A DNA stretch of 49,525 nucleotides from Moniliella sp. 'wahieum' (taxonomy: Eukaryota): the NCBI GenBank assembly GCA_003971905.1, contig RSEE01000097.1, positions 186,001-235,525 on the forward strand, written 5' to 3'. A program made the position numbers and the translations under genes. Numbering within the stretch: position 1 is the stretch's first letter; each line of letters begins with the position of its first letter. The notes below the pieces were generated by a model. The model was not told the DNA's origin, ran no database searches, and saw only the letters and a list, made by a program, of their open reading frames with translations. This document shows, piece after piece, positions 3,105 through 49,500 of this stretch.

Positions 3105-5709
3105 ATGGGTAGGATGCGCACCTGGCCTGCGCCGCCCCTGGCCAGATTGCGTGTCGGTGCGCGCCGGTTTCACACGAGCCCCATCGGCCGCAGAACGACG
3201 GCCTCCCGGCTCCGGCGCAGCGGCTGTGCCTCTCGGCGTGCGCCTATCCCGACACGCGCGTTCACGCCGTTGGCGGTGCTTCTCACCCTGCCTGGCTCGA
3301 CGAACCCCCTGACACTGACTGGGCCTTTGGAGGCGGCGACAAGAGTCGCTCGGGCCTCGCGATGCTCCAGGTGGCCTCCGCACGCCCGTACCTGCCGGAG
3401 GCACGACTGGCACCGCTTTTAGTCTCTCCCGCCCCGTGTACAGTGTCGATGGCACGAACCTTTGGGAGCAGATGCCCGATTAACTCTTCCACCGCCGCCG
3501 CCGCCGCCGCCGCCGCCACCTCATCCTCATCCTCTGCTACCACCTCAGCCTCTCCCCGCCTCCCGCCCCGGCGGGTGAGACGTTTACTTACTCAGCACCG
3601 ACAAGCAGTGTTCCCGCGTCGCCCTTTGACCCGACCCTGGGTACCGCGCCTAACGCCGTGGCGTTCTCCCGCGCCCATGGAGAGTGAGTCGATTTGTTGG
3701 GCCAGCGACGGGCGCAAAAGCAGCGCGCCTCTGGTTCCTACCAATCTACTGCGCGAGCGCTGGCATCACAGGCTCGGCAGGTACAGGGGCGGTACCCAAT
3801 ATGGGCGCAAGAACCGTATTCGTCACTCTCCAGGGGTGGGTCAACCCGAATCAGCTGCTACTGCCGGTGGCTCTGCCTCTGTCTCTGCTCTGCCACAACG
3901 GACCATGTTTGCTAGTCCCTCGTCCCTTTCAATGCCAACAATTTGGCTTCGCTCGGGTCCGACCCGCCCCTCGAACGCGTGCTGACAGCGGCGGGTCTAG
4001 CTGAGTATGCGGCCAGCCGGACCCCGACGCGGAAACGTACTGCGCTCATCTTCCCTGGCTTAGTGCGTGTTCATCCCCTATTTTATTGGCTTCCCCGTGG
4101 GCCAGAGCGCGTGCTCACTTTAGCTAACTTGCTCTTTTCCTCTTCAGCTCGGATCGCAATACGTTGGCATGGGACGAAACCTGTTCCGGACGTTTGCGCA
4201 AGCGCGCGACGTATGGCAGGCGGCCGAACAGGCGCTGTTTGTCTCCTCTGCTGAACCAGGGGAGCCCTACTGGATATCAGGTAGTGCATTGACAGATTGT
4301 GCCGGATCGCCACTGAGCGAGGAAGAACTCCTGACCGAGCAACAACACCGCCAGCACTTTCTCCGCCACCTCGAGGGCGTAGACGTAACCTACACGGACC
4401 CGGTACGTGACGCTGGTCCGTCTACTGCCCCTTCTGGTCCTGAACCCGTTGAAGGCGGATGGCTGCGCCAACTTGTCTTTGGCGGCGACCAGCTCGCCCT
4501 GACCCGACCTGAAAATGCGGCACCGGCAACGTTGGCATGTACCATGGCCTTTTTCAATGTGCTCCGTACTGCCTTCCCTACCGATTTGGTCGCGGACCAC
4601 ATTGATGTGCTCTGTGGCCATGGAACCGGGACGTATGCTGCGCTCGTGGCGGCTGGCCATGCAAGCTTGACGGACATGGTGCGATTGTTACGTCACCAAG
4701 GCCTGGTCACCGAACAGTGCTGGCACGACGACCCGCTCCTCTTCCCACCCGGCTGCCAGCGGCCGGACACGGACTATGCCAGCTGGGGATTCACCAACGC
4801 CGGCGCGCAGCTGTCTTCAGCTGCGGACGCAGCCGGCTCGGGATCAGGATCGGGATCTAGCTTCCGCCAGTCCCTCATGACGGCGGTGATGATCCGCCCG
4901 GGCCAGCTGCACGCAGCGCTGCTGCGGATCGAAGAACTGCGCACACTGATCCACCTTGGTGCGGCCCCGATCGAGGTGCGCACAGGCACGGGCGAGAGCG
5001 CCGACCAGGGCCGCGAAGCGTTCTTGGATGCCCACGAACTCGTCGAGATCGCCCAGTACAACTCGCACTTCCAAATCGTCTTGTCGGGCACGCGGCGCGC
5101 GGTGGACTACGTGTGCGACGTACTGCAGCGCGAGCGACTGGGTCATCGCGCAGTCAACCTCCCCGTTGCAGGACCGTATGGGACGAGCCTGATGCGCGCG
5201 GCGGACCGGGCGGGTGCAGCCGGCGATCCGGGCGTTGCCGCTGCGCGAGCTGCCGCGTGCGAAGCGGGCAGCGGCGGGGGGGAGCGGATCAGGGGCACCT
5301 GCGCCGCCGTCGGTTGCGCAGCTGGAGCTGGTGAGCGGGTACGATGGCGAGCCGACCAGCTCGGCGCGGGCGGTGCGGTGGGAGATGCAAGGCGGGCTGG
5401 GGCGGCCGGTGCGGTGGCTGGACGCGCTGGATCGGATGCTGGAGCGCGGGGTGGAGCGCTTCATCTGTCTGGGCCCGGGGCGGGCGGTGGGCCACCTGCT
5501 GAGCAAGGAGCTTGCGCATCGCCAGCGCGTCGAGGCGAGCAATGCGCAGCGCGGCCTGGCGGAGGTGCACCGCCTCGGCCGCGCCGTACGACGCGCCGCG
5601 CACACCGGCCCACTACGAGGTGTGGTCCGTCGCGTCGACGGAGGATGTGCGGCAGCTGGGCGGCGTGCTCAGCCGCCTCTCCCACTCGGAGCGCGGCGGG
5701 GCGGCGTAG
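3105..5709 (+). CDS. Mitochondrial malonyl-CoA:ACP transacylase (FabD/MCT1)-fold protein, catalytic residues substituted
   Basis: Presequence-like start MGRMRTWPAPPLARLRVGARRFHTS. RTALIFPGL|LGSQYVGMG spans an intron at 4063-4147 (GTGCGT..GCTAAC..CAG). Further FabD-like motifs: GHGTGTYAALVAAG, IAQYNSHFQIVLSG, LPVAGPYGTSLM, RPVRW, GVERFICLGPGRAV. Several frameshifts. Confidence 0.8.
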
Positions 5710-5730
5710 GCGCGTCGGATGGGAGTGTAC

Positions 5731-5771
5731 TATGACTGCTATGACTGCTATTCCTGCTATTGCTACTGCTG
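5731..5771 (+). repeat. Short degenerate 9-bp tandem repeat (TATGACTGC) in 3' UTR
   Basis: tatgactgc tatgactgc tattcctgc tattgctactgc. Confidence 0.6.
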
Positions 5772-6315
5772 CGGCGGCCACAGCCATCCTCCGACGCAGC
5801 GCAGACAGACGTTGAGCCATGCGCTGTGGGTTGGGGGGCACCAGTGTGCCCGACGGAGGAGTGCCTTGTGGCTTGCGGGGTAAACTAGCCCGGACAGACA
5901 CGATGCATGACGTCATGGGGCTCTGCAGGCATCATGCACCAGTCACACCGTTCGCACGGGCCGATGCAGCCATGTGCAGCAGCATGCAGATCCTGCTGCG
6001 ATCTTGTGCGAGGCACGAGGCAGCAGGCAGCAGGCAGGAGCTAGTCACTAGGCAGGAAATCGTTCTCTCCGCCGCAGAATCTGCGTCATGGGTGCTCGCA
6101 CAGCGCCAGTACCGGCGCCCAGGGACACCCACACTGCCCCCGTGGCGGCTGCGTGTCGTCCATCGGCGATGGGCGAGCAGGGCAGCCATCTCTGACGTCA
6201 TTCGCTCGCGGCTGTGCTGCCGACAGCCAGTCGCCCCCGCGGCCTCAGCGGGCAGTCGCTCAACACTGAACTCTGCCTCTCCGCCACCTCCTCCTCCCCG
6301 ATTCGCCCATCCGCC

Positions 6316-10440: not shown

Positions 10441-13400
10441 CTAATTAGGGACAGAGGGGGACAAAGCGTTGGCGTCGTCAGCGTCAGCGTCGTCATCGTC
10501 GTCCGACACCACGTGGCCATGGGCACGGAGGATGGGTTTGGTGGCAGCACGCTTCATCGTCAGTTCCTCGAGCAACACGAGTAGATCCTCATTTTCTTGC
10601 CGCACCGTCGCCAGCCGATCGGGCGCGGGCTCAGACAGCGCATCCACCTTAGCCTGCAGCGTGGCTACCAGGTGCGTCAAGCGCGCCCTCGGCGCATCCC
10701 CGGCAGGCGGCACCAGCAGCTGGTCCAATGACCAATGCTGGACTTCACTGGCACCTTGTTCCTTAGCTGCCGCTTCTAGCGCCGCCGCACGCCGATCACT
10801 TTGCCGTTGTGCCCGCCCGGCACGGGCATCTGCGCGTGCGGCCTTGCGTGCGCGCTTGGCCATCACCCGTGCGGTCCGCTGCCGTGCGGCAAGCGCCTGA
10901 CGTAGCTCCGCAATCGCCTGCCCGGCATGTTCTTCCGCTTGGTCGTACGCTTGGAGCGCTTCTTGGTGCATTTGCTCCGCCTCGGCGGTTCGGTATCGGT
11001 ACGCACGGTGGCCCGGTCCAGTTTGCCCGTTGCGTCCTTTTGCTGGACAAGGCAGGCGGACAAACTGACACGCTCGATCGCCAGCGAACGCTCCGTCGTT
11101 GCCCACCCAGCGTACGAGCTTCCCATCTCGGCAGGTGCCAGCAACGATGTTTCCGCTGCCACTGTGAGGGAGATCGGTCAGGTAAGGGTTAGTCGTCGTG
11201 TGGCATGCGGGGAAAAGAGGGGAGGGAAGGGGACATACAGTGCGTCTGGTCCAGGAACCGAGTAAATGTGTCCTGCGCAAATAGCGGCATCGCGTCGGCG
11301 TCCTCTTCGCCCGTCGCGTCGGAGGGGGACGGTGAGGTTACGAATGAGCCAAGGCGTCTCGGTCGCAGGGGCGCAGCAGCCAGGAGGGGCTGGAGCGTTG
11401 CGCGACTCAGGCCGTGCGCCGCACGGTCCCACTCGTACACCGCCGCCAAAAGGAACGACGCCAGACCAGCCAGACGCGCCACGCCGGCGGAGCGGCGGTA
11501 GCCTGGGCCGCTGCCGCGGGCGTCACACGAGATCGCCAGGGCAACAGTGCATGCACATTCTCGCTTCTCGCAACACCATCCCCGCTGCTGCGGGCGAGCC
11601 CATACCCACACGAATACAAAAGCGACAAAAGCGCTTCTGCCGTCCTGCCCACCGGCTCGAGACTAGCAGCTTCCGAAAGTGCCCGGTACCGCGCCGACCC
11701 GCGCAAGACAGCGCGTCGCACGCGCTGCAACGACCTGCAATAACGGTTCTCGCGGATCATCGTCATCCTCCTCCTCTTCCTCCTCTAGTTGCTCCAGATT
11801 CTCCCCTGCTCCGGCACCGCCCTCGCCGCCTGGCCCGGCGCTGGGCTTGGTGGAACCAGGCACGACCAAGGGCCGCATACATACTTGCCCATTCAGGTCA
11901 AATGCCACCTCCAGCCGCCTGCTTGGCGCGCGCCACCGACCCTACTGCCTCCACGGCACTCTCTCCTGCTGCAGGGGAGATGAGTGTGGCGAAAGAGAGC
12001 AGCAGCGCTGGCGGCCGCTGCAGATACCGCCCCATCATCCTCGGCTGCCGTCTCACGCGGTGGAGGCCCCACCAACGCACCCAGCAGGGCCCCGCCAGCA
12101 TCTCAGCCTTGGCCCGCTCGGGGGTTATGATGGGCATGGGCAGGGGCGAGCGTGGCGCCGCAGGCGGCGGCACGAGCTCCTCCCCCTTCGAGCCGGTCGG
12201 GTTGGTTTCGACGGTCGCTAGGGGTGGAGGAGCCACCATTTCAATTGGGGGAGGGAGCAAGGCGGAGAGGACAGCGAGCTTGGCGTGGGTGGTGTTGAGC
12301 ATGGTAGCAATCGCCTGGGACGCCGCGGCTCGCAGCGGTCGATCGGCCTTACGAGCAGCGCGGTCCGCCTGCCTCTGCGCCCGTTCGGTCCCTTCCCGAT
12401 CCGCCGCGTCCGCATCTGCCGTCTCGGCCGCGGCCAAGGCCCGGAGCTCAGGAAGTACCTCGGCAAATGTTTTCTCGCCCGCCCACGTTCGCGTCAGCGG
12501 GTCACCGGCCAGCGCCAAATCCGCCAACGCTGCCGGTACGGGGCGTGGTGGCGTCCGCAGTGCTCCCTGGGGGGGGGGCCGGAAGCAAAGGCGAAACAAA
12601 GGTATTGTACAGCGCATCTTCAATGTAAGGTGTGCTCCCACGACCTGTGGTAGCCGCTACGCGCGTATGCTCGTTCGCTACCAACCCACCGATCGTGGTG
12701 AGTGCCACGGCACGAATAGACGCCGGGGCCGTACTGGCACATGCCAAGTTGGCCACACAGGCCACCATCCCACCCGACACAAGCGCTGCCGCGGTCGTGC
12801 CGCTGGGATCGGCGTCGGGCTTGCAGAGTGCCTCGGCAATAGCCAATACCAGTGCAACGTTGTTCTCTTTGCGCTGGGCCAGGCGGGGCGTATCGGGCCA
12901 AGGTTGATAGGCGAACGCATCGAGGCGCAATGGGTCGGTCATTGCCGTCGCGGGAGGGAAGAAGAGCAAGGGGGGAAGAAGGACGATGGCACCCGTTTCG
13001 CGGAAATAGGTACCGTTGCTCGCCGCCGCATCGTCTTGCAGTAAAGCCAAGATGCACGTCAAGGCCAGACGACTTGTTTGCCCGCCCTCCACCCGCCCAG
13101 CACGTGCAATCACATCGAGCAGCGCCTCAAAGGACCCTCCAAAGGCGACCAGCTTGGCTAGCTCGGCTGAGCCAGTAACAAGGTCCGGCAATAGGGCCAG
13201 AACGACAGCACGAATTTGCAGGTCAGGAAGGCCCGGGTGATCAAGGAGTGGATCCAGGTCCTCCTCCTCCTCTGTGGGTGCCGGCGCATCGCCCCCCTGT
13301 GCAATGGCCAAGGTGAGGTGCTCCACCACCCCCACCCACCCGGAGCGGACAAGACATGGGATTGGACCGCGGGGCCGTGGGCACGGAGCATGCGAGCTAG

Positions 13401-33062: not shown

Positions 33063-33473
33063 GAGGGTGGGGGGGGGCAGCCCCTGGTCCGCTCCAGCCA
33101 GGACGAATTGGATGTTAGAAGAGCCGAGCTGGAGTTGAAATTGAACGCTGGATACGTAATGCGCGGGGTAGGCGGGCGGAATTGGGGCAGGCGCGGCGAT
33201 GCGCCGTTCGAACCGGCGGTGCTGGCGTGCACGGGGCAGCACCAGGCAGCACAGCACACACCCGCAGGACGGTCGATCCAGTTCGCAAACTTGGCGCCTG
33301 TCCGCCGCCGCCGCCGCTCGCTCTCTCCACCTCACCACCTTCGCGCCCCGTCTTGAGGTATGTCCTCCCGTCCCTCCTCTCCCACCACCACCACCACGGC
33401 TGGCACCACGGCCCCCATCCTCACCGCGTCCGATGCTGCTGCCGGTTCTAACCCTGCCTGCTAGACTGCCGCC

Positions 33474-33980
33474 ATGACTGCCGCCGACTTTAACACGGAG
33501 CTCTGCCCTGTCTATGCGCCCTTCTTTGGCGCCATGGGCTGCGCCGCCGCCATCGTTTTCACCTGCTTTGGCGCCTCCTACGGCACGGCCAAGAGCGGTG
33601 TGGGGCTGAGTGCAATGGGTGTCCTGCGCCCCGACCTGCTCATCAAGTCCATCATCCCCGTCATTATGGCCGGTATCGTGGCCATCTACGGCCTGGTGGT
33701 GTCGGTGCTGATCTCGTCGGGCATCAAGTCGCCCATGTCGCTGTATGCTGGCTTTGTTCAGCTGGGCGCTGGCTTGTCCGTCGGGCTCGCTGGTCTGGCC
33801 GCTGGGTTTGCCATTGGCGTCGTGGGCGACGCGGGCGTGCGCGGCACGGCGCAGCAGCCCCGTCTCTTCATTGGTATGGTCCTCATCCTCATTTTCGCCG
33901 AGGTGCTGGGTCTGTACGGCCTGATTGTTGCCCTGATCATGAACACACGTGTGCAGGACGACATTGGCTGCTCCCTCTAA
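33474..33980 (+). CDS. VMA3: V-type ATPase proteolipid subunit c
   Basis: Intact 168-aa [50 protein letters not shown] (proton-carrying Glu). 5'-UTR intron at about 33358-33463. Confidence 0.96.
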
Positions 33981-34467: not shown

Positions 34468-36186
34468 TCATACAGACATGGCGTCCTCGTCGTCACTCCA
34501 TGCGTCCCCTCCGCCGAGCGGCTCCTCGAGCAGTTCCCCCCGAGCCGTTGAATTGACCAGCTCGCGGCGCACTTCGGGAGAGATACCGTCATGGTACTGG
34601 ACACGGAGCAAATCGATCAGTGCCGTCTTCTGGTCGGGCGTCAAGTCCTGCTTGTAGCGCTGGGCAAATACCAGCAAGCTCTGGTGCCACAGCACGGGCA
34701 TGCGGCGTTCTCCGGTCGAGTACCCATCCACCTTGACTGCTTCAACGCCTTTGCTTGGGTCGGAAAATTTAAGAAAGTGGAAAACGAGCGCATCAACAAC
34801 CTTGTAGGGCAATGCGTACTTCTTGTCGAGCAAGACGCGGATAAAAACGAGGTGGGGCCCTTGTATGGCATCGTAGCTAAATGAAGCAGCGCCGCAGCCG
34901 AGTGGAGCATGGGCACCGATACCTTTTGCAGGACAGAGGAAATGATGGCCGCTTCCTTGAGCGTCACTGTGCCGCTCTCAATCATGGGGAACAAGAACCC
35001 CTTGAAAAAGGCCGAGGGCTTGTAGAGCGCCTTCTTGATCGCATCGTACATCTGTACCGACAGTTTCCCCTTGTCATCAATCTCGTCGCGTACCTTGTCC
35101 AGCAAAACAAGCTCAAAGTACCGTTGCGTCTGGTATGCCTTGAGGTTGCTCACGCAGATCCTCGTCACAGCTAGCGTAGCATGAGGGGTCCACTCTTGTG
35201 GATTGGTAATGTACAAGATTGTCTCCCAGGCAGGCAGGGTGGGAATGATCTTCAATGGCTTAGGAAGCGGGCCGGACTTGTAACGGGAAAGGAGTTGTCC
35301 AACCCTGGGGAGCGACGCGAGTCAGTAGGAGACCAACATATTGGAAGGGGCACAAACGTACTTTGTGTAGACCTCGACCACCTTCGGGGTGATGCCAGGC
35401 GGGAGCTTGTTCTCAGGCCCCGAGGCACCTCCGCCCCCCATCTTCATTGCCTCTTGCTCTTCCAGTTTGGCCATGATATGTCCGCAAGCGTCCGTCCTCC
35501 TGCTGCCGGGGGCTCGTCCCCATCAGGCAGTGCGTCGGCCAAGGCGGCAAACTCACCACCCAATTTGGCACCTGCGCGTTCACGCTTGCGCTCCCCAACA
35601 GGACCTTCCAGCTCTTCAATCAACTCGCGCTGATTGGGGTCCAGTTCGAGCCCACGATAGGTTTCTTCCAGATCCTCGTCGCCCGACTCGGCTTGTCATC
35701 AAGCTCCCCGTCATCGGACGAAATCTCATCGTCGTCAGCCAAGACCACTTGGCGACCAAATCGAACCGTCTTTCCCACTTCCTCATCATCCCTTTGGCGC
35801 AGGTGCATTCGTGCATCCACCCCGAGCCGCTCCGCCTCTTCCTCAGCTTCGATCTCGGCTTGCTGCTCCTGCGCGAGGCGGAGGATGTTGCGGGACAACT
35901 TGGGATCGACAAACGCACCCGCACCCGCATCGGCCGAGCCGTGGACTTGGGCACCCGTGATGTGGCCACCAGGAACGTCGAGGTCCATCTCTGTTTCCTC
36001 GTCGTGCGCGGCGCCCGTCTTGCCCGCTTTGCCCTTGCGGCGGCCGGGGGCACTGACCCGACCGTATTTGTTCCGCAGCTCTTCCTCGCGCAGCTCCTGG
36101 GCGAGGGAGGACTGCTTCTGGGCCTGCTTGTCGAGCGGCTTGAGCGCCGACTTCTTCTTGGGCTTGGACGCAGGCGCACGCGGCAT
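34468..36186 (-). CDS. ENP1: Bystin, pre-40S assembly factor
   Basis: [77 protein letters not shown]. Intron at 35305-35361. Confidence 0.93.
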
Positions 36187-36442: not shown

Positions 36443-38523
36443 ATGGCAGCCGACGCTTCTCTCTCCTGCGGCCGCCTCGCCCACTGCGCCTCCATCTGCG
36501 CCCACCACCGTGCCTCCGGCTTCTTCCGCCTCTGCCTTCGCTCCCGCTCCCGCCGCTGGTCCGTCCCTCGCTTCCGACTCGGACGATTCGGACGGTGACG
36601 ATGACGACACGTGGGACGACTTTGACGACCAGGAGGGCACGGGCCTCTCCTACGCCGAAGGAGCCACCACGGGGCGTCTGGGGGGCTCCGCCAACCACCA
36701 CCTCGCCTTGTTCCTCGACGCTGGTTCGACAGAGCTCAAGACGTTTGCGAGTGCCACCGGGCACTGGACCACGCCTCGGCGCTTGGATGCGACCTGGTCG
36801 CCGTTGTCCAGCGCCTGGATTGGATGCACTGGCTGTCATTCGCCTACTCAACCATTTGCGCCGTGCCCCTGGCAGTGTCAGCCCCCAGCAAGCCGCGGCT
36901 CTGACTGGGAACGAGCCGTACCTATCGGATGACCAGGAGCTGAACCCTGTTCCTGGGTCGGAAAACGATGGTCTACTGCGTGTGTATACCCCCACCCCCG
37001 TTTCCTACGTTAACCCTTGATTTGGGGTACTAAACGCTAACGTGGACCTTCTCTACCAGAAATTGACTTTGACGACCTTCTCGAGGCACGTGCCAACGCG
37101 GGCCAAGCGGATTCGGGCGACATTCATTTGCGCAACCGGGTAGCCGAACTCGAGTCGCAGTTGCAAGCGATCCAAATGTCCTATGCCGACTTGCAAGCGC
37201 GCTCGCTCAAGATACATAGGACTCAAAGCGGATGGGACACCGACAAGGATGCGGCTGGACTGGCGGCGACGCCTGCCAAGCGAGACGACGATACGAATTA
37301 CTTTGATTCGTATGCTGGCAACGACATTCACCAGACCATGCTGAGTGACACGGTGCGTACCCTCACCTACGCCAAGTTATTCTTGCCCCCGAGAATGCGC
37401 ACATCTTCCGCGGCGCCCGCGTGATGGACATTGGTGCCGGAAGCGGGATTTTGAGCATGCTCGCGGCGCGTGCCGGCGCGGCACAAGTGATCGCCGTCGA
37501 TGCAAGCAACATTGCCGTTCGGGCCGAGAAGAACATTCGTGAAAATGGACTGAACCATATCATTCGTGTTGTCCGAGGCAAATCGAAGACTTGGACGAGG
37601 AGCTGGCGCCGTACCGGGGTAAAGTGGACGTGATCATTTCCGAGTGGATGGGGTACTTTTTGCTGTACGAGTGCATGCTGCCTTCGGCCTGCATGCGCGA
37701 GACCTGTACCTGCGCACAAAGCCCAATCCCCAGCGTCCCCTTGCTGGGCCCACCGGGCTGCTCGCTCCGAGCCACCCGCATGACGCTGGCGGCCGTGTCG
37801 GATGCGGAGCTGCTGCACGAGCGGATCAACTTTTGGAACGACGTTACGGGTTCAAGATGAGCGCTATGACCGAGGGCCTGTTTGACGAGGCGTATGTCGA
37901 GACCCTTTCGCCCGAGAGCATCGTGTCGAACGTGGTGGACATCTTTGACCTTCCGCTCGGCATCCTGCCTGCCAAGCAGCCGCGTCTTCCGCAGCCCGTT
38001 CCAGCTGGAGCTGCAGAAGGATGCAACGGTGCACGGGTTCACCTCGTGGTTCGACACGTGGTTCATGACTTCTCACCAGCCCTACCGAGTGGACGACAAG
38101 GGGAGCCGGTGCAGATGAAGGGGGGGCAGGTGCTGGACCTGCCCGCGTGCACGACCAAGCCGGTCGAGGCGTCGGACGTGCCGGGGATTGAGCTGCGCGG
38201 CAACCAGATCGCGCCGGCCCCCACGGCGGAGCAGGAAGAGAAGGACGCCAAGGCGGGGGGGCTGGCAGTGTCGTTTACGACGGGGCCGTACGGCAAGCCG
38301 ACGCACTGGAAGCAGAGTGTGTTCCTGCTCCGGGAGCCGATCGAGGCCAAGCGGGGGGAGCGGATCGTGGGGGACATGATCGTGACGCAGTCGGAGAGCA
38401 ACTCGCGCGAGCTGGATGTGGAGCTGCACTACCTCGTCCAGCCGCCGTCGACGCGGGCACGGCGGGCAAGACGGCGGCAAGCACGTGCAGACGCGGATGG
38501 TGAGTCTGTTCAAGGTGAGGTAG
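36443..38523 (+). CDS. RMT3: Type I protein arginine methyltransferase PRMT3/Rmt3
   Basis: Acidic WDDF N-terminal extension, YFDSYAGNDIHQTMLSDTVRT, VMDIGAGSGILSMLAARAGA, VDVIISEWMGYFLLYE double-E loop, and TTGPYGKPTHWKQ. Intron at 36980-37059. Confidence 0.88.
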
Positions 38524-38773
38524 GCGGCGGTTGAATGAATGCTGTCAGGGACTGGTCGAATAGCGTCGAGTAGTGTGCCCGTGTAACCCAGGCGGAATGC
38601 ATGCCGTGCTCTGTATTCCGCCCGCCATCCATGCCTAGCGTTTAGGTTTAGCTGGGAGCAAACGACAACTGCGCACTTGAACGGTCAACCTTGCGATTGG
38701 GTGGAGGCCTGTCGCGGTGGATGGGCAACATCAGCCAGCCTCCTCCAAGCTGCACCGCCGCCCTGGCCGCTGT

Positions 38774-38902: not shown

Positions 38903-40454
38903 ATGAGTGACGCTGCCGCCGCCGAGGCATCCCCACCGCCCGCTTCGCCCGCCTCGCCCGCCTCGCCCCCAAAGACGCAGGCTCACCGTCCGCACCGCCT
39001 TCGACCTCGGCCGCCGCGCCCGCCGATTCCCACCCCCTCAGCCGCAAGCGCGACCGCGAAGTCAGCCTCGAGCCCTCTGCCTTTGTATGCGCCTCCCCAC
39101 CCCCCCACTAATTTGTGCCGGTGCACATGCTGACCTGCTCCTTCCTGTAGCCGCCGCCGGATGCCGTGTCGACGAAGCGCAACAGGCGGCTCGACTCGGA
39201 CTCGGTCTCGGATCGCAGCGCGTCGCCGTCCAAACCCAGTCCTGGCAAGGCAGGCGAGACGAAGGCTTGGCGCCGGGTGTGGGTCAGATCCGGAAGAAGT
39301 GCAAGACCTAGACTGGAAAGAAAAGGAGGGCAAAGGAGATAGCGCGGGCCTGAAGCACCTCTGGAGCCTGCTGCCGCAGCCGCAGCCGCAGATGCCAAGT
39401 CCCCCAATGCAGAGCGACCAAGCCCGCGGAGGAGGCAGACGCAGTGGCCGGTGCAAGCACCCCTCGGAACGCACCTCGGACGCTCCGTCTGCGCCTACAG
39501 ACCCAAGCCTGCGTCCTCTCCCGCACCCAAGTCTACCCAGCCAACATTTGCCTCGTTCACCAGCACAGCAACTCGTCTCCTTTTGTAACGGGTGCGAGCG
39601 GGTCCAAGTCCTGGCTGGCCTCCTCGACACCGACCACGCCCGGTCTGCGTCCCAGTGCGCTGGGGTCTTCGCTCGGGAAGCTGGGAGGCTCTCAGACATC
39701 GCCTGGGGCTGCGTCGACAACCGCCGCGCGTCTCGCCTCGATCGCCCGCCACCTCCAATCCCGTCAAGGGCAAGGCGGCGATGCCAACCACGGCTTCCTT
39801 GGGCTTCGGCTCCTTTGCGGCTGGTGCGGGATTCGGCCATGCCGGGAACGCTTCGCCGTTTAGCTCGGCTGGCTTCGGTGACCAAGAAGGCTGCTGCTAA
39901 ACCAGATGAGACGGCTCCGGCCTCCTTTGTCACCCCGCGCTGGAAGAGTCTGGGCCAAAGTCCAATGTGGCGGATGAGATTGCTAAAGAGGAGGAAGCAA
40001 ACAAGCCCAAGCTGGAGGTCAAGGCGGAGAACTGTATGTGGACGACGCTCCTCCGTTGCGAGTAAGACAGGACTGACACGTGGAACGATTAGTGTGGACA
40101 GGCGAGGAGGACGAGACCAGCGTCTTTTCCAACCGCGCCAAACTCTTCACCGGCGCCGAGAAGGGTGCGTGGCGCGAGCGCGGCACAGGCACGATCCGGG
40201 TCAATGTGCCCAAGGACGCCAAGGATGGGCAGGGCGGTCGTCTGGTGATGCGCGCCGAGGGGGTGCTGCGGGTGATCCTCAATGTCAAGCTCTTTGCCGG
40301 CCTGCGCTGCGAGCTGGCCCAGGACAAGTTTATCAAGCTGCTTGCCTTTGAAGACGGGGAGCTGGTGCACTTTGCGCTCCGCTTCCCCAACCCAGCTGCC
40401 GCCGCCGGGTTCAAGGAGGCTGTGGAGGCGCATGTTCCGGCGCCGACGGCGTGA
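38903..40454 (+). CDS. RanBP1-domain protein with FG motifs (Yrb2/RanBP3-like)
   Basis: KRNR basic motif, LGFGSF/AGFG repeats, TGEEDETSVFSNRAKLF..WRERGTGTIRVN..RLVMRAEGVLRVILN. Introns at about 39085-39150 and 40034-40092. Confidence 0.85.
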
Positions 40455-40669: not shown

Positions 40670-43600
40670 CATAAATAGACGCCTTCCAACCCTCCTTCCT
40701 GCCTAGTCCGCCTCCCTGCTGCCGGCCGAGGGGCCTCGGCCAGCTGGCCTGATAGACCTGCACCAGCTGCTCGTAGCCCCGCATAGCATCCAGTTCGCAC
40801 GTCAGCTCATACACCTGCCGTGCCAACCGCTCCCGCTCGGCCTCCGCTTCGCCCTGCTGCACGCGCTCCGCCGCGAGATAGCCAGCGGCGGGGCGTGTGT
40901 GTGCGCGGCGTCGTGCCAGCGCCAGCGGGGACAGCCATGCGCGCTGGCATGCTGCTGTTGCTCCAGCTGCTGTGTTAGCTGCTGCGCCCGCGCCTCAAGT
41001 GCTGCGCGCGGTCGCGGCGGAACTGTACTGGGTCTGGACGGTGGCCAGCGCGTTCTGGGCCGTGGCAAGTTGACGGCGAGGGTGGACCAATTGGAGAGGA
41101 GCGCGACCTCTCGTGCCGCTGCCGCTCGTACTTCTCCACGTCGCCGTCCCAAGAACCAGGGCGGCGGTGAGCTGGCGCACACGCTCAGCTACATGTCGGA
41201 CAAGTGGATCTTGGGCTTGGCCAGCTCATAGTCCCCGCGCAGCTGCTCCTTGTAGCCTCCTCTTGTTGCAGCAGCCGTGCCACCGCGCCTTCTCGGCCCG
41301 CAACGCATTCACTTCCGTGGTCAAATGTGCCTTTTCGCGCTTCCACACCCGCTCGCTGTGCGAGTGACTCGCCTGCCGCTGCGTCTGCGTCGAGTTCCAC
41401 AACTTGTACTCCCGCCCCCTGGCCAATCCGTTCTCGCTCCCGCTGTGCATCCTTCTCCAGCGCAGACACTTGCCAGGTCAACTGCCGCACGCGAACTCAA
41501 GGTTCTGCTGCTCGGCCTCAGTCGCGGCTGCTTGATTTCGCTTGGCATGCACGTGGCCGAGATGGGCGAGATGCTGCTCTTGGAGATAAAGCTCGTACGC
41601 CGTTCGTTGCGCAACAACATGTTTTCTCGCTCCAGCTGCGCTCCGTACCGGCCCGGGAGGCATGGGGAAGATCACCACTGGTATCGCCCGTGTCGCCGGT
41701 GCCCCCCTCCGGACCAAGAGAAGAGGCAGTTTGCTCCTGCGACCGGGCGGACGTACCAGAAGGCATGACGACCGAGTGCCTCAACGGATGCACGCCCCTC
41801 TCTCCTGACAGGCCCCGTTCCGACGAAGCATACGAGTCCCGAAGCGACCGACGGTCTCGCAAATTGCTTCCCACAGAACGGCGTGAAAGGGAGGCAGAGC
41901 GCGAAGCGGCAGGAGAGCCCCCGCGACTAAATGTGCCCATCACCACGGCTGATGCTACGGCGGGCGTGGCTCGCGTCCCAGCCAAAAGAGGCGAATCAGG
42001 TCCCGATAACGAGTCGGGCAGAGACGAGGGGTTGACTTCGGGACTGGGCTTGAGCGGTGTGGCGAGACTGGCGGTTTGACTGACTTCCTTGACCGATGTT
42101 GTGGGTTCGGCAGTAGCGGCGGCTAGCGTGGTCGCGCGGGCCCTGTGCCCCCTCGACCGGGGGGTCGTGGTACAGGCGCAAGGACAAGTGTCCGGCGCGT
42201 CCGACTGTTTGAGACGGGCATGCTGGGCGAGAATATGATGAGCGTCGCGCGGGCTGGGCGAGCCAAGAGCCTGCATGGTAGATACTGAGCTCTTGCGCAC
42301 AGGGACCACAGGCGCTGCGCCCGATGCTGCTGCCGCAACATGGGGCTGCCCGAGTCTCCCAAGGAAGAGAGGCGGGCGTGGATGGCGCAGAAAACGAATG
42401 GGTCCGGCTGGCGGGGGCGGTAGGGGCGAGGGGATGGGAAGGAGCGTCGGCGGCCTCTCAGCCTCCAACCCGCTGCCCCCGCGCGTCGGTGGTCCAGGCT
42501 GAAAGGGCGTATCAATCTCCGCTGCAACACCCTCCCTGCCAGGACCCAAATGGAGGCGCAGCGACTTGGTGGCCACAATGCTGGCGTCGTACCCCCCAGC
42601 GGGCCGTGTCGCTGATTTCTTGCTGAGCGTCGAGCGTGATGAGACTGGGATGGAGCACGTGGCTCTTCAAGATGGGACGGATACGAGCTTGGAGCTGGCG
42701 CTGGTCCATAACATCTGCCCAGGATCCCTTGAAGAGCGTAGGATACCCACTGCTCTCCATGTAGGCAATAGGTTCGCGGAAGAAGCGAACTGTGTTACAG
42801 GGAAAGATACCATACAGAAACGTGAACAGTGGTTGGGCATTCGGTTCGGGCAGGTCCACCCATCGGAACTGGAGGCTGGCGGGGCGATGAGGAGTCAGCA
42901 GTGCACGTTGGGCCGCGCTAACACATGGTAAAAGGCGTGATAACGTACTAACGGGTTCCCACGCGATGCCCGCTTTGAGAGAGGTCCGCTGGCCGATCCG
43001 ATCCATATCCAGGTAATCGACATCAAGCATCTGACGATTCGACTCTTTCCCTAACCCAGACGCTCTTCCCATCCCACGCCCAATGTCCTCCAATCCACAA
43101 TACGGGCCAGGACCGAAAGGAAGGCAGGAAGCCCACCTGCCCCCCCCAGCGCAATCCAATCGGGAATGTGGGGGATGAGCATGGTCAAAACCCGCAGGCC
43201 AACAGTGACGATCGTCTTGGACGTATCCAGCTCAAGGGAGAGCAGTAAATGTTGGGGAAGAAGTGTCCGGGTTATCTGATAGATCAGATTAGGAGCGTAG
43301 CGGAAGAAACGCACCAGCAGCTCCAGTAGACACAAGCGTGCTTCGGCCCGCAAAAATGTATCGGCAACATGGTGGAAAAAAGGGGTTGGAGCGTGTGCCC
43401 AAACTGGAGCACAATCTCACCCAAGTTGTATCGCCATGTGCTTTTGCGCTCTGCCTCTTCGTCGGACGAGTCATAGGCGCCCACAGGGCTCGAGAGCCCG
43501 ACGGGGTCGACATTATCCTCAGAGAAACATGTTCTGCGACAAATAAGTCAATGATGCGCTGGCGAAAGCGCGGGGTCTTGTTCTTTCTGCCATGGGCGGC

Positions 43601-44417: not shown

Positions 44418-45515
44418 AGGCCGAGGTGATAAACGGCAGCGGGCACGTGACCGGGCCCGGCCGCACCAGGCCGCACCCCGATGAGGTAATGGCCGTGTGC
44501 AGCGCGAGTGCCGAGGAGAATGCACTGGAGGAGGTATGGTGCTGAGGAGAGGTGGGGGTGGAAGACGCAATGAGAAGGACAGGGGCAGCACTGCTCTCGA
44601 GGGCTACCCGCGCCACTACACGCCCCGTACAGTTCATTCCTTGCAATATGCCTTCCTGGAGGGCAAGAATCATATTCTCTCAAGCCTCTGTAGCTCATGT
44701 GCAATGCTCAGCTACTTACTCTCTGGTCTTCTATGTAGGGGGTAGGGGGACATTCTGTCCTCTCGACCGTCTACCGCACTGTCATCATGACGGCCCTCTA
44801 GAGAGCCTCATCGCAGCTTTTGTCCAAGAGAAAAATGCATCGCGACGTGCAGACCGAATAATATATGGAGCAAGGCGGACGTTTTCTTTGTCCAGAATAT
44901 GCCAACAAGTCGGGGGTCGAAATGATATTAGGGGAATTGGCGAGATCATATGCGCAATCATTAATCAAGATCGCAAGAGTAACCAACTGTGTGACCGATG
45001 GAATCGTGGCAAATACGTGCATAATGGGTGGTCTAGTCCCCAATGTTTAGGCGGCAAGGTCCATCAAGTAGCTAGCTATATATATGAAGCTCTAGACGTT
45101 TAAGGCTATGGCTCAAAGCTGATGAGAATGAAGATGATGAGATGATGAGAATGCTTGCCTTCTCGAGTCACTTCAATTTCCAAGACAACAACGGCAGAAA
45201 CTATACACGGTTTGGGGGGCAGGGGGGGGGGGGGCAAGCGAGAAAGAAAGCAAAGCAAAGGGCATATTGAGGAAAAGGTAACGGAGCGGAATGCGTGAGA
45301 CCGAGCAGGGCGATGGAGCATGTTTGCAATGCATATACGTGGCGAAAGGTGGCGGGGCAAGGGACGAAAAAAAGATAGAGGAACGAGCCATAGCAACACG
45401 CCAAAACGGGCGAGTACGAGAACGAATCCAGAAACTGCGTTCGAGTAGCGAAGCCAGTGGACGAGGCAAAGTAGCACGCATGCGAACACGAACCAGCGCA
45501 GACCCGTCACCCTTT

Positions 45516-46730
45516 TCACCAAGGCATCTCCACAAGGATTTCTTGTCAATGTTCTCGTTTGGCCCCTCGTCGCGGGGCAAAACGCTGCCAAAGACACGGT
45601 CCCAGATACGGGTCTGTTTACCGTAGTTGCCCGAGTGCTTCCACCCCCGGCGGTGGTGAATGTCGTGGTCCTCCATAGTAATGTCCATGTCAAGCGGCTG
45701 CAGCAGGAACGGGAACGCCTGGAACGCAGTGAGTAGAGTCGCACGCCCGCGTGTCCGAAAAGCTCAACGACCGTCACCATGGCGTTGCAGAACCACCATT
45801 CATAGAAGTTGGGCCGCAGAACGAGATGGGATACATGGTGAGCCATGTAAGGAATGGAATGCCAACCATGTCAAAGAGTTCCTGCTCATCGTCGGCAAAG
45901 GGTGAGGAGCGTGTTGGGGTGGCGTGAAAGGTGGTGCGTGCGGTGGAATGGCCAAAGCGAGTCCGACTCGTGCATGACCCGGTGGTACCAGTAATAGTAG
46001 AAATCGAGCGTCCACGTGTAGACGGCCATCTGGATAGGCAGCTGCCAGCGAACCGTGGGCTTCGAGTCGGCGTCCCACGTACTCATGACTTCCATAAAGA
46101 CACGTTGGGACCGGTGAGCAGCAGACTGGCAGCAACCTTGCCGCCGAGAGCGTCGGGCACTTCGTCACGCGGCACACTCGAGTCAAAGTACCCATACTTG
46201 GCACCAAGGTCGCGGCACCTCCAGATGACCTGGATGCCCAAGTGGTAGTAGAACAGCATGTAGAAGGGAATAGCGGCCCACTTGTTGATGCCTGCCTGGG
46301 ATACGGAGACTCTTGGTCTTTGTAGAGCACATCGTTGAAAAGGTACGAATGGCGTACTGGATGATGACGGGGGCGCGGCACGGACCATGGCCCAACGCAG
46401 CTGGGTGAGGGGCGAGAGGTAGGGCACGGGGGCCTTGGGATCGACGTACTTGGGCTCGTCCGCTAGAGGCCAAAGGTCAAGCAGCGTCATAACGTGGGCG
46501 GCCCAGTTCTTGGGGGCGTCAGGGTTGGCCCTCCATTCAGACGGAAGGAGGAGTTGCCCATGCTGATCTTGCGCACTTCGGCGATGTTCTCGTCGAGGTC
46601 AGCAGCGCGCATGTAGGCTGGTGTGTCATCGGTGTCGGGTGTGGTGGGGATGGCGGGGCGCGGCGGGGCGCGCAGCGGGAGGATGTGGCTGGCTGATGCC
46701 AGTGGCAGTGGCGGTGGCGGCGGGCGTCAT
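45516..46730 (-). CDS. Fatty acid hydroxylase / sterol desaturase superfamily di-iron membrane enzyme
   Basis: His boxes DFYYYWYHRVMH, FHRTHH, ELFGHAG and EDHDIHHRRGWKHSGNYGKQTRIWDRVFG. Confidence 0.9.
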
Positions 46731-48685: not shown

Positions 48686-49500
48686 TTAAGGAGGAGAAGA
48701 AAAAGCCAAGACTCTCTTGAGGTCGTCGAAGGCGCTTTGGCCGGAGACTTCTAAGCAAACCGCTGAAGAGTCTTGCAGGTGAGGTCGGATAGGGATGGGA
48801 AATGCGGGCATATTAGGAGCAACTGAAGTGGCGGTAGTAACTGGCAAACGCAGGAACACCTGAACTTGGCTGCTGGTCTTGAGCGTCGGCCATGCCTTGA
48901 TCGCTTCCATCTTAGCCGGATCCATCCCAATCCCCGTGGACGAAACTACGTAGCCCAAATACTTTATCCGGGATGTGTAGAACCGACATTTGTCCGGATT
49001 AAGGTAGAGCCTGGCGCGCTGCAGATCCCACAACACCTCAGCATCATGCTCCTCGTGTGCCTTTTCGTCCGACGAGAAGACCAAGATACCGTCCAGATAT
49101 GCCAGCACCGAGACGTCGAGGAGGTTCCGAAGGAGATCATTCATTACGGCTTGGAAAGTGGCGGACGCGTTACAGAGACCGAACGGCATGACGAGGGATT
49201 CAAAATGACCTTACCTGGGTACCAAAAGCCGTCTCGTACTCATCGCCCTCCTTGGCCGTCAAAAGGTTGTGCGCCCCACGGAGGTCAAGCTTGGTAAAAC
49301 GCGAGTCCCGACAAGCGATCGAGCCAGTCGTTAATCAAGGGGAGGCCATACGATTCTTGATGGTAATTTTGAGTTGAGGGCACGACGATAGTCTACACAA
49401 AGTCGGAGCGAGCCATCCTGCTTCTTAATAAAAGGGACACCCGCCCCAAATGGCCATTTAGACGAGGCCATTTCGTCAATGCCTCAGCCCAGGACACCCA
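48686..49500 (-). mobile_element. Ty3/gypsy LTR-retrotransposon reverse transcriptase fragment (inactive)
   Basis: FIKKQDGSLRLCVDYR, MPFGLCNASATFQAVMN, VLAYLDGILVFS (YxDD changed to YLDG), NPDKCRF..IKYLGYVV..MDPAKMEAIKAWP. Frameshifts present. Confidence 0.92.

Follow-up and report, generated by a model that had tools for sequence, protein, structure and literature searches.

Mitochondrial type II fatty-acid synthesis (mtFAS) feeds lipoylation, its acyl-acyl carrier protein (acyl-ACP) feeds the assembly of respiratory complexes and Fe–S clusters, and MCT1/MCAT is its entry step. In FabD chemistry there is no ping-pong transfer of malonate from CoA to ACP without the Ser, His and Arg of the active site. 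In Escherichia coli FabD numbering, these are presumably Ser92 (the nucleophile), His201 (the base) and Arg117 (the carboxylate clamp), with Gln11, Gln63 and Gln250 lining the pocket. Here we describe a long gene of the FabD/MCT1 (malonyl-CoA:ACP transacylase) family in Moniliella sp. 'wahieum', in which all of these residues are replaced. It lies on the plus strand, at least from 3320 to 5709, of a 49,525-nucleotide stretch of contig RSEE01000097.1 (assembly GCA_003971905.1, positions 186,001 to 235,525), and this whole stretch is referred to below as the window. The best explanation, to which we give a probability of roughly 65%, is that the gene is the window lineage's copy of the long FabD/MCT1 gene and encodes a conserved, non-catalytic FabD-fold protein.

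Bacterial FabD, human MCAT and yeast Mct1 (PF00698) are the closest described systems. The window protein shares their family and can be aligned with them motif by motif, with the elbow, the GxxxxM start and the NxNSxxQ and GPG blocks all retained, and the predicted structure of a close relative (P0004) superposes on theirs. It differs from them at the active site, where Ser and His are both Gly, Arg is Gln, and the three Gln residues are Leu, Ala and Gly. Beyond this, the family of the window protein has gained an N-terminal extension that is long and mostly disordered, as well as two insertions and, at the C-terminus, a strand-helix.

Human MCAT is described as a bona fide mitoribosomal small-subunit assembly factor with a non-metabolic role, which holds rRNA h31 and blocks h42 until its departure (PMC9892005); the precedent on which an earlier note on this DNA had drawn is, per that source, a real one. 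The likeness to the window protein is that of a FabD fold with a structural job. The active site of human MCAT, however, is complete and the protein still serves as the mtFAS enzyme, whereas the window protein is stripped. We know of no fungal counterpart of this ribosomal role. Yeast Rsm22, presented in the same article as a methyltransferase-fold assembly factor that lost S-adenosylmethionine (SAM) binding (PMC9892005), likewise retains an enzyme fold in mitochondria after losing its cofactor or catalysis, as proposed for the window protein, but its fold and family are unrelated and the comparison is an analogy only. The acyltransferase (AT)-like domain of the Thraustochytrium polyunsaturated fatty acid (PUFA) synthase is another acyltransferase fold that is no longer a malonyl transacylase. 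It is reported not to rescue an E. coli fabD mutant and to be a thioesterase that needs its Ser96 and His220 (PMC8003026); the window protein has neither residue.

The nearest outgroup in our tree consists of MCT1-like proteins of the Pucciniomycotina (Rhodotorula, Sporobolomyces, Microbotryum, Mixia and rusts). With the window family they have in common a long extension at the N-terminus, the first insertion and the EVxSxAT strand at the C-terminus, but they keep Ser and His (GHSSGE[YF], PFHC) and their loop after RxxG is much shorter. Nearly all of these orthologs (P0243, P0245-P0247, P0249, P0255, P0257 and P0370-P0421) read FPG[S/T]GSQ, with Gln11 replaced, and most read RL[T/I]RLHG, with His at the malonate-binding Arg position. 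This sister group is therefore unusual as well, and its protein may be something other than a standard malonyl transferase. Elsewhere in the family, the Coemansia gene models P0013, P0210-P0212 and P0216 join a normal GHSVG MCT1 to Methyltransf_8 (PF05148), possibly as fusions of neighbouring genes.

Replacement of the active-site residues

In the translation of 4148-5197, the nucleophile Ser of GHSxG is Gly (GHGTG, GGA at 4622-4624, in ...LCGHGTGTYAAL...) and the general-base His of PFHS/PFHC is also Gly (PYGT, GGG at 5180-5182, in ...LPVAGPYGTSLM...). The malonate-binding Arg of RxRG is replaced by Gln (RLLRHQG, CAA at 4697-4699), and the Gln of the NAQPA motif by Ala (ENAAPA, GCA at 4520-4522). 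The Gln of QxxxPVxW is Gly in the piece read in frame 3 (GGLGRPVRW, GGG at 5394-5396). The first Gln of PGQGSQ is Leu, with ...ALIFPGL before the intron at 4063-4147 and LGSQYVG after it; the canonical GT-AG splice makes this motif one residue longer than usual. The earlier note had reported the loss of the Ser-His dyad, the reading LLRHQG at the malonate position, and L, A and G for the Gln residues of FPGQGSQ, TQPA and QLxxPVRW, and translation bears out all of these.

The alignment to known transacylases that the note had proposed gives the same picture. In a phmmer search of Protein Data Bank (PDB) chains, the window positions align residue for residue with the GHSLG, PFHS and RLLRIRG of solved transacylases (3qat, the best match, at E = 9e-15, and also 3ptw and 2cuy; 23 PDB sequences at E ≤ 1). 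The 350-residue main piece scores 35.5 bits against PF00698, for which the cutoff is 32.7, and thus belongs to the FabD/MCAT acyltransferase family. The Ser, His, Arg and pocket or oxyanion Gln residues of an active malonyl-CoA:ACP transacylase (EC 2.3.1.39) are all missing from the window protein.

The same changes are found in P0004, an independent protein of 502 amino acids that comes from another data source and is encoded in a single open frame. BLASTP identity to the window protein is 78% over the 350-residue main piece, and across the three main pieces 274 of 331, 79 of 106 and 39 of 42 aligned residues match. Like the window protein, P0004 has GHGTG, PYGT, RHQG, ENAAPA and Leu for Gln11; its last Gln is replaced by Ala. 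Because P0004 independently carries these changes, we consider the active-site residues to be real and not read errors. The note's count of at least two substitutions each for the Ser and His codons also stands: restoring them would take two and three substitutions, respectively, and not indels.

Residue counts across the Ustilaginomycotina and the gene tree

We collected relatives by a search with the window protein and then by a search with a profile of its clade, the latter giving the 120 best matches among candidates pre-selected by shared words. The clade comprises Ustilaginomycotina from Ustilago, Sporisorium, Pseudozyma, Moesziomyces, Kalmanozyma, Melanopsichium, Testicularia, Thecaphora, Violaceomyces, Tilletiaria, Exobasidium, Ceraceosorus, Tilletia, Parajaminaea, Sympodiomycopsis and Malassezia, the last with nine named entries among the matches listed. 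Each named species occurs once among these matches, except that Tilletia horrida and Kalmanozyma brasiliensis occur twice as duplicate entries. Residues were counted in an alignment of 134 rows, 72 from the clade and 62 others, in which the window is absent and P0004 represents it.

At the nucleophile position, 69 of the 72 clade rows have Gly, with one Ser (P0169), one Asp (P0171) and one gap, whereas all 62 rows outside the clade have Ser, the Pucciniomycotina sister group included. The catalytic His is kept in 68/72 clade rows, the exceptions being P0004 (Gly), P0166 (Asn), P0235 (Phe) and P0236 (Tyr), and in 62/62 others. Arg is likewise kept in 68/72, with Gln in P0004 and P0179 and Tyr in P0235 among the exceptions, and Gln11 in 64 of the 65 clade rows that have a residue there. 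Gln63 (NAQPA) is present in 46/72 clade rows and 62/62 others, and Gln250 is replaced throughout the clade, mostly by Ala. Judged from these sequences, the loss of the Ser is old and subphylum-wide, and what sets the window lineage and a few others apart is that His, Arg, Gln11 and Gln63 have gone too. The earlier note had raised the possibility that orthologs in related fungi share both GHGxG and PYG; the first is indeed common to the clade, but the second is not, His being retained in most members. Our search of open-access full text and bioRxiv found no report of the missing Ser in Ustilaginomycotina or Malassezia, and the subphylum-wide loss is apparently unreported.

The clade also has an insertion after the RxxG helix that is absent in canonical FabD (PLLFPPGC...YASWGFTNAG..., window 4733..4861, plus strand). 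It contains a conserved Cys (4754-4756 in the window), and this column reads C63, S7 and A2 among the 72 clade rows. In the alignments, the conserved QMS strand comes directly after the insertion, which is placed at the inter-subdomain linker beside the cleft. The window has all three features of the clade, namely Gly in place of the Ser, the PxG[C/S]...Y.TW.F.NA loop and a C-terminus with HLLSKEL...[YF]EVWS. When the clade profile was run exhaustively with HMMER against 1.84 billion representatives, ~17 clade representatives scored above 290 bits, and then only Ser-bearing sequences followed among the matches listed.

Several clade members depart from the common pattern. The Malassezia-type sequence P0169, which reads GHSSG, adjoins the near-identical P0167 with GHGSG, and its Ser could be a reversion, a polymorphism or an error; P0171 reads GHDSG. 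In P0166, which represents a Malassezia-type cluster of 116 members, the catalytic His is replaced by Asn (PYNT), and P0179, with Gln at the Arg position, is from Ceraceosorus. In these cases (P0166, P0235, P0236 and P0179), which belong to several lineages, the pocket is eroding independently. Tilletia orthologs (P0181-P0184, 958-977 amino acids) have a one-residue insertion in the elbow (GHGTSG) and large extra insertions. The residue that follows the Gly at the nucleophile position is Ser in 61 and Thr in 6 clade members, with Leu, Ala, Gln and Met also occurring. We considered a nucleophile shifted to this Ser/Thr (GHG[ST]G) and rejected it as a general answer, given those last four residues in four clade members.

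The tree was a quick IQ-TREE search of 77 rows, with the Shimodaira–Hasegawa-like approximate likelihood ratio test (SH-aLRT) as the sole measure of support. The Ustilaginomycotina clade (69 rows in the tree) has SH-aLRT 100 and a stem of 1.89, and is sister to the Ser-bearing Pucciniomycotina group, which also includes Phakopsora, Melampsora and Atractiella. The window and P0004 form a pair (SH-aLRT 100) that groups with Tilletiaria anomala and P0235 (SH-aLRT 98). The placement of the window's organism in the Ustilaginomycotina is taken here solely from this gene tree. Measured from the node shared with Tilletiaria, the window lies at a path length of 1.57 and Tilletiaria itself at 0.41, and the tips are short (0.07 for the window, 0.19 for P0004). 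As reconstructed from tree and alignment, the nucleophile Ser was replaced by Gly in the common ancestor of the Ustilaginomycotina version, and the His, Arg and pocket Gln residues were lost later in the window lineage, on a strongly accelerated branch. Purifying selection was renewed afterwards, and the FabD fold, the clade loop and the C-terminal strand-helix remained intact. This suggests a burst of change that included the pocket, and then renewed conservation.

A clade that is sister to the Pucciniomycotina group and has one copy per named species shows the pattern expected of an ortholog rather than of a recent dead duplicate, and it is more likely, on this sequence evidence, that the window gene is its lineage's ortholog than a private paralog. 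The lineage-private dead paralog proposed by the earlier note is therefore not supported, with the Ser already replaced across a clade that is single-copy per named species among the matches listed. In a broader form, the gene could still be a dead paralog freed for another role, beside a canonical Ser-His FabD/MCT1 that supplies malonyl-ACP. Ustilaginomycotina still need lipoate, and hence malonyl-ACP, as general pathway knowledge has it, and a divergent second copy could hide, given that known Agaricomycotina and Ascomycota MCT1 are not among the matches listed either. No Ser-bearing Ustilaginomycotina copy appeared among the 120 matches listed in the clade-profile search or among the 120 listed in a search for the Ser-bearing Pucciniomycotina type, but this negative is weak because only the best 120 or 150 matches were listed and the 120-match searches pre-select by shared words. 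Against a second copy, no Ustilaginomycotina occurs among the 120 Pucciniomycotina-type matches listed, and the next-best Ser-bearing eukaryotic matches of the HMMER scan resemble proteins of Mucoromycota and Zoopagomycota, not of basidiomycetes. The window itself contains no second FabD-like region detectable by tblastn with four canonical queries. With the sister relationship and the single copies added, we regard a dead paralog as unlikely.

Constraint, fold and competing explanations

Constraint was judged from 66 further clade members set against the window, with P0004 and P0235 excluded and a column called invariant at 95% identity or more. Of the 46 positions that are invariant in the clade and common to canonical FabD as well, 42 are unchanged in the window, which has lost Gln11, Arg117 and His201 and changed one Leu to Met; the three catalytic residues differ from the remaining 43 positions with a one-sided Fisher p = 2.6e-4. 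It keeps 48 of the 55 clade-specific invariants, and the losses are mostly conservative. Differences between the window and P0004 fall in 6/100 invariant, 23/172 intermediate and 36/144 variable columns (invariant 6% vs variable 25%, Fisher p = 1e-4 at the protein level), and four of the six in invariant columns belong to the read-through of an intron at the N-terminus of P0004. The differences spare the invariant columns, and substitutions since the split of the window and P0004 have therefore avoided important sites. Purifying selection on the window protein is thus supported, as far as protein sequences can speak to it.

Homology to the family runs from ~3320 to the stop codon TAG at 5707-5709, as judged by tblastn of relatives and by motif coordinates; the span of 4030-5500 given in the earlier note fits the core but not the full extent. 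The N-terminal extension begins to match at the WAFGGG motif (3320..3337, frame 2), where P0126 and P0134 give tblastn matches at 3311-3355, and the true start codon lies upstream. The equivalent region of the Tilletiaria relative is predicted to be disordered. A low-complexity poly-Ala/Ser run (...AAAAAAAATSSSSSATTS..., ~3480-3560, plus strand) follows in the same frame as WAFGGG, and antisense frames are also open over it. WAFGGG is missing in Malassezia and P0235. We rejected the idea that it equals the WxGG of Pucciniomycotina and so dates a second function to before the loss of the Ser, as the two motifs are unaligned and lie at different distances from PGxGSQ.

Further on, the basic motif AGTGAVPN / YGRKNRIR (3777..3823), which is in a single frame in relatives, is split by one missing base, with its halves in frames 0 and 2 meeting at 3800. 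The end of the upstream exon (3908..4062) reads FASPSS in frame 2 and FNANN...TALIFPGL in frame 1, with one base missing at the frame change (3926-3927); the consensus of relatives is PSSSFNASS...KKTALIFPGQGSQ. The 85-nt intron (4063..4147) begins with the donor GTGCGT, has its branch site CTAAC at 4124-4128 and ends in the acceptor CAG. Homology moves across it from frame 1 to frame 2, and the N-terminus of P0004 is a read-through of the equivalent stretch. The main coding piece, which carries the FabD/acyltransferase core from LGSQYVG to ...LMRAADRA (4148..5212, frame 2), is supported by Pfam, PDB phmmer and P0004 tblastn matches. One extra G in a GGG run (5212..5214) then changes the frame from 2 to 3, so that ...AADRA is followed one base later by VQPAIRA, where P0004 reads ...ADDAVQPAIRA in one frame. 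The second coding piece (5214..5570, frame 3, VQPAIRALPL...PVRW...GVERFICLGPGRAVGHLLSKELAHRQR...AEVH) matches P0004 by tblastn over its whole length and has HLLSKEL at 5493-5513. An extra base, probably C at 5570-5571, changes the frame from 3 to 1 (5568..5578), where P0004 is continuous. The last coding piece (5578..5709, frame 1, ...YDAPRTPAHYEVWSVASTEDVRQLGGVLSRLS...) is the one with 39 of 42 residues matching P0004, and its predicted extra strand and helix have a predicted local distance difference test (pLDDT) score above 90.

No intron fits at the four frame changes (~3800, 3926-3927, 5212-5214 and ~5570), and a further one somewhere in 3337-3777 could be an intron. Taken as real, these changes would make the gene a decaying pseudogene that is not expressed in the window's organism, and at least four of them between 3300 and 5709, in ~2.4 kb, are compatible with a recently dead gene. 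All four localised shifts are single-base, however: a base is missing at ~3800 and ~3926 and a base is extra at 5212-5214 and ~5570. Three are in short runs of the same base (~3926, 5212-5214 and ~5570), and the one at ~3800 is by short two- or three-base runs. The corrected frames contain no stop codon, the alignment to P0004 continues on either side of each change, and the pieces match P0004 at 75-93% (79/106 to 39/42), with differences that avoid the invariant columns. A defect of the same kind is found elsewhere in the window, in a Bystin gene (ENP1-type, 40S biogenesis; 34471-35321, minus strand), a conserved housekeeping gene of an essential family, where profile positions 48-233 and 195-290 of the Bystin Pfam family are read in different frames; the two frames join at base 34848, with A5 and G4 runs adjacent. 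This control is one clear gene, as the splits in protein arginine methyltransferase (PRMT), hamartin and fatty-acid hydroxylase genes of the window could equally be introns, which leaves the pseudogene some room. Because the shifts are single-base, mostly in same-base runs and free of stops, and Bystin shows the same defect, they are most likely assembly indel errors, which agrees with the indel errors that the earlier note had seen elsewhere in the sequence. A decaying gene is accordingly quite improbable.

The structure prediction that the note had called for was made for P0004, an ~80% identical relative, and agrees with the claim of an intact scaffold. AlphaFold2 with 134 aligned sequences gave a confident FabD fold (pLDDT 88.7, predicted template modelling (TM) score 0.91), in which GHGTG forms an elbow (strand 164-167, a turn, helix 171-179), the inserted loop has pLDDT blocks of 80-95, and there is an extra C-terminal strand and helix. 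Target-normalised TM scores from Foldseek were 0.84-0.91 against FabD structures (0.91 for 6u0j_A, 0.90 for 1mla), 0.81 for human MCAT (2c2n) and 0.78 for MCAT in an assembly intermediate of the mitoribosomal small subunit (8csp_8), the last being what any FabD would give. The Tilletiaria ortholog, which keeps His and Arg, has the same confident core, with ~255 N-terminal residues that are almost wholly disordered except for one helix. The first 30 residues contain at least three basic and at most one acidic residue in 37 of 56 full-length clade N-termini, a crude rule by which their composition is compatible with mitochondrial targeting but no proof of it.

Alternatively, the clade may still consist of enzymes, in which the Cys or Ser of the PxG[C/S] loop replaces Ser92, or malonate is transferred directly, and the window protein would keep a related activity. 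At the loop position, 63 of the 72 clade rows have Cys and 7 have Ser, an exchange of the kind seen between nucleophiles; the loop is confidently modelled and inserted at the inter-subdomain linker just before the QMS strand, and His, Arg and Gln11 are kept in most of the clade. P0235 and P0236, which lack the His, have also lost the loop Cys (Ala and Ser). The window and P0004, on the other hand, have the Cys but no base, carboxylate clamp or oxyanion partner, with His, Arg and both Gln gone; P0123 has Ala in the loop yet keeps the His; and the residue after the Gly provides no conserved substitute nucleophile. On balance we find an activity of this kind in the window protein very improbable. 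That base-calling or assembly errors produced the odd residues in a normal MCT1 gene can be dismissed, for although the assembly clearly contains indel errors, the substitutions needed at Ser and His are not of that type, and P0004 and the 69 relatives with Gly at the Ser position refute it.

We therefore return to a conserved, non-catalytic FabD-fold protein. By the known mechanism of FabD, the window protein would perform no ping-pong transacylation. It would act by binding and not by catalysis, presumably inside mitochondria, through the preserved cleft and the clade-specific surfaces. As its partner we would guess, by analogy only, some large mitochondrial assembly: the mitoribosomal small subunit, with which human MCAT works, or else ACP. 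Most clade members keep His, Arg and Gln11 without the Ser, which implies that their pocket still binds something or catalyzes differently. In the window protein the pocket has been dropped while the loop, HLLSKEL helix and YEVWS strand persist, and the function of those elements would therefore be independent of the pocket.

Several points weigh against this explanation. The retention of His, Arg and Gln11 long after the loss of the Ser indicates that, in most of the clade, the pocket is of some use even now, and apart from the window lineage just a few members (P0235, P0236) can safely be labelled pseudoenzymes. Our tree comes from a fast search with SH-aLRT support, and its long branches may be misplaced. 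The test of selection was made at the protein level and not as codon-level dN/dS, P0004 being known as a protein. The frame changes and the weak negative for a second copy, given above, also count here. Finally, the MCAT study treats the ribosomal role as human, with the site in yeast held by other proteins (PMC9892005). The earlier note's observation holds, and more strongly than it was put there. As for the interpretation offered in it, a dead site on a retained scaffold stands, and a private paralog does not.

Neighbouring genes and meaning for mtFAS

Little is recognizable in the part of the window that surrounds the gene, and the neighbours there offer no clue to its function. Between 1 and 27000, with the open reading frames (ORFs) of the FabD-like gene (3916-5931) left out, one of 100 ORFs of at least 110 amino acids matched Pfam at E ≤ 1e-5, and this was a weak match to Uso1_p115_C (10444-11337, minus strand). 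Such sparse matches are odd for a gene-dense fungal genome and may reflect frame breaks, introns or lineage-specific genes. Beyond this region, besides Bystin, the window encodes a V-ATPase/ATP-synthase subunit c (33465-33977, plus strand), the PRMT (37349-38531, plus strand), a RanBP1-domain protein (40077-40451, plus strand), the hamartin-like protein (42515-43416, minus strand) and the fatty-acid hydroxylase family protein (45176-46164, minus strand), none of them obviously connected with mtFAS. Near its end, the window has a reverse-transcriptase domain (PF00078, E = 3e-19; 48689-49210, minus strand), which is probably a fragment of a retrotransposon.

If the sole homologue of a whole subphylum lacks the nucleophile, then there is either an alternative mechanism, another route to malonyl-ACP or a second function. 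The loss of the Ser puts malonate loading for mitochondrial fatty-acid synthesis in smut and Malassezia fungi in question. For Malassezia, the loss bears on the extent of the fatty-acid chemistry that remains. Malassezia genomes are reported to have no fatty acid synthase (FAS) genes and so to lack cytosolic FAS (PMC5603697), and a 2025 paper calls it unclear whether Malassezia has adapted mtFAS (PMC12416284). Among natural tests of whether the FabD fold has a non-catalytic role, an idea raised by human MCAT on the mitoribosome, the fully stripped version in the window is the cleanest.

A joint reading of these observations is tentative, and we would not bet on it. In the whole of the Ustilaginomycotina, including Ustilago maydis and Malassezia, mitochondrial synthesis of fatty acids and lipoate would proceed without a Ser-His malonyl-CoA:ACP transacylase, and most members would use a relocated loop Cys/Ser nucleophile or a bypass to malonyl-ACP. 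The window lineage, with a stripped pocket under selection, would reveal a second, essential and non-catalytic scaffold job, e.g. in mitoribosome or ACP-dependent assembly. If this is true, the window protein would be a natural separation-of-function allele, in which the non-catalytic job has outlasted catalysis.

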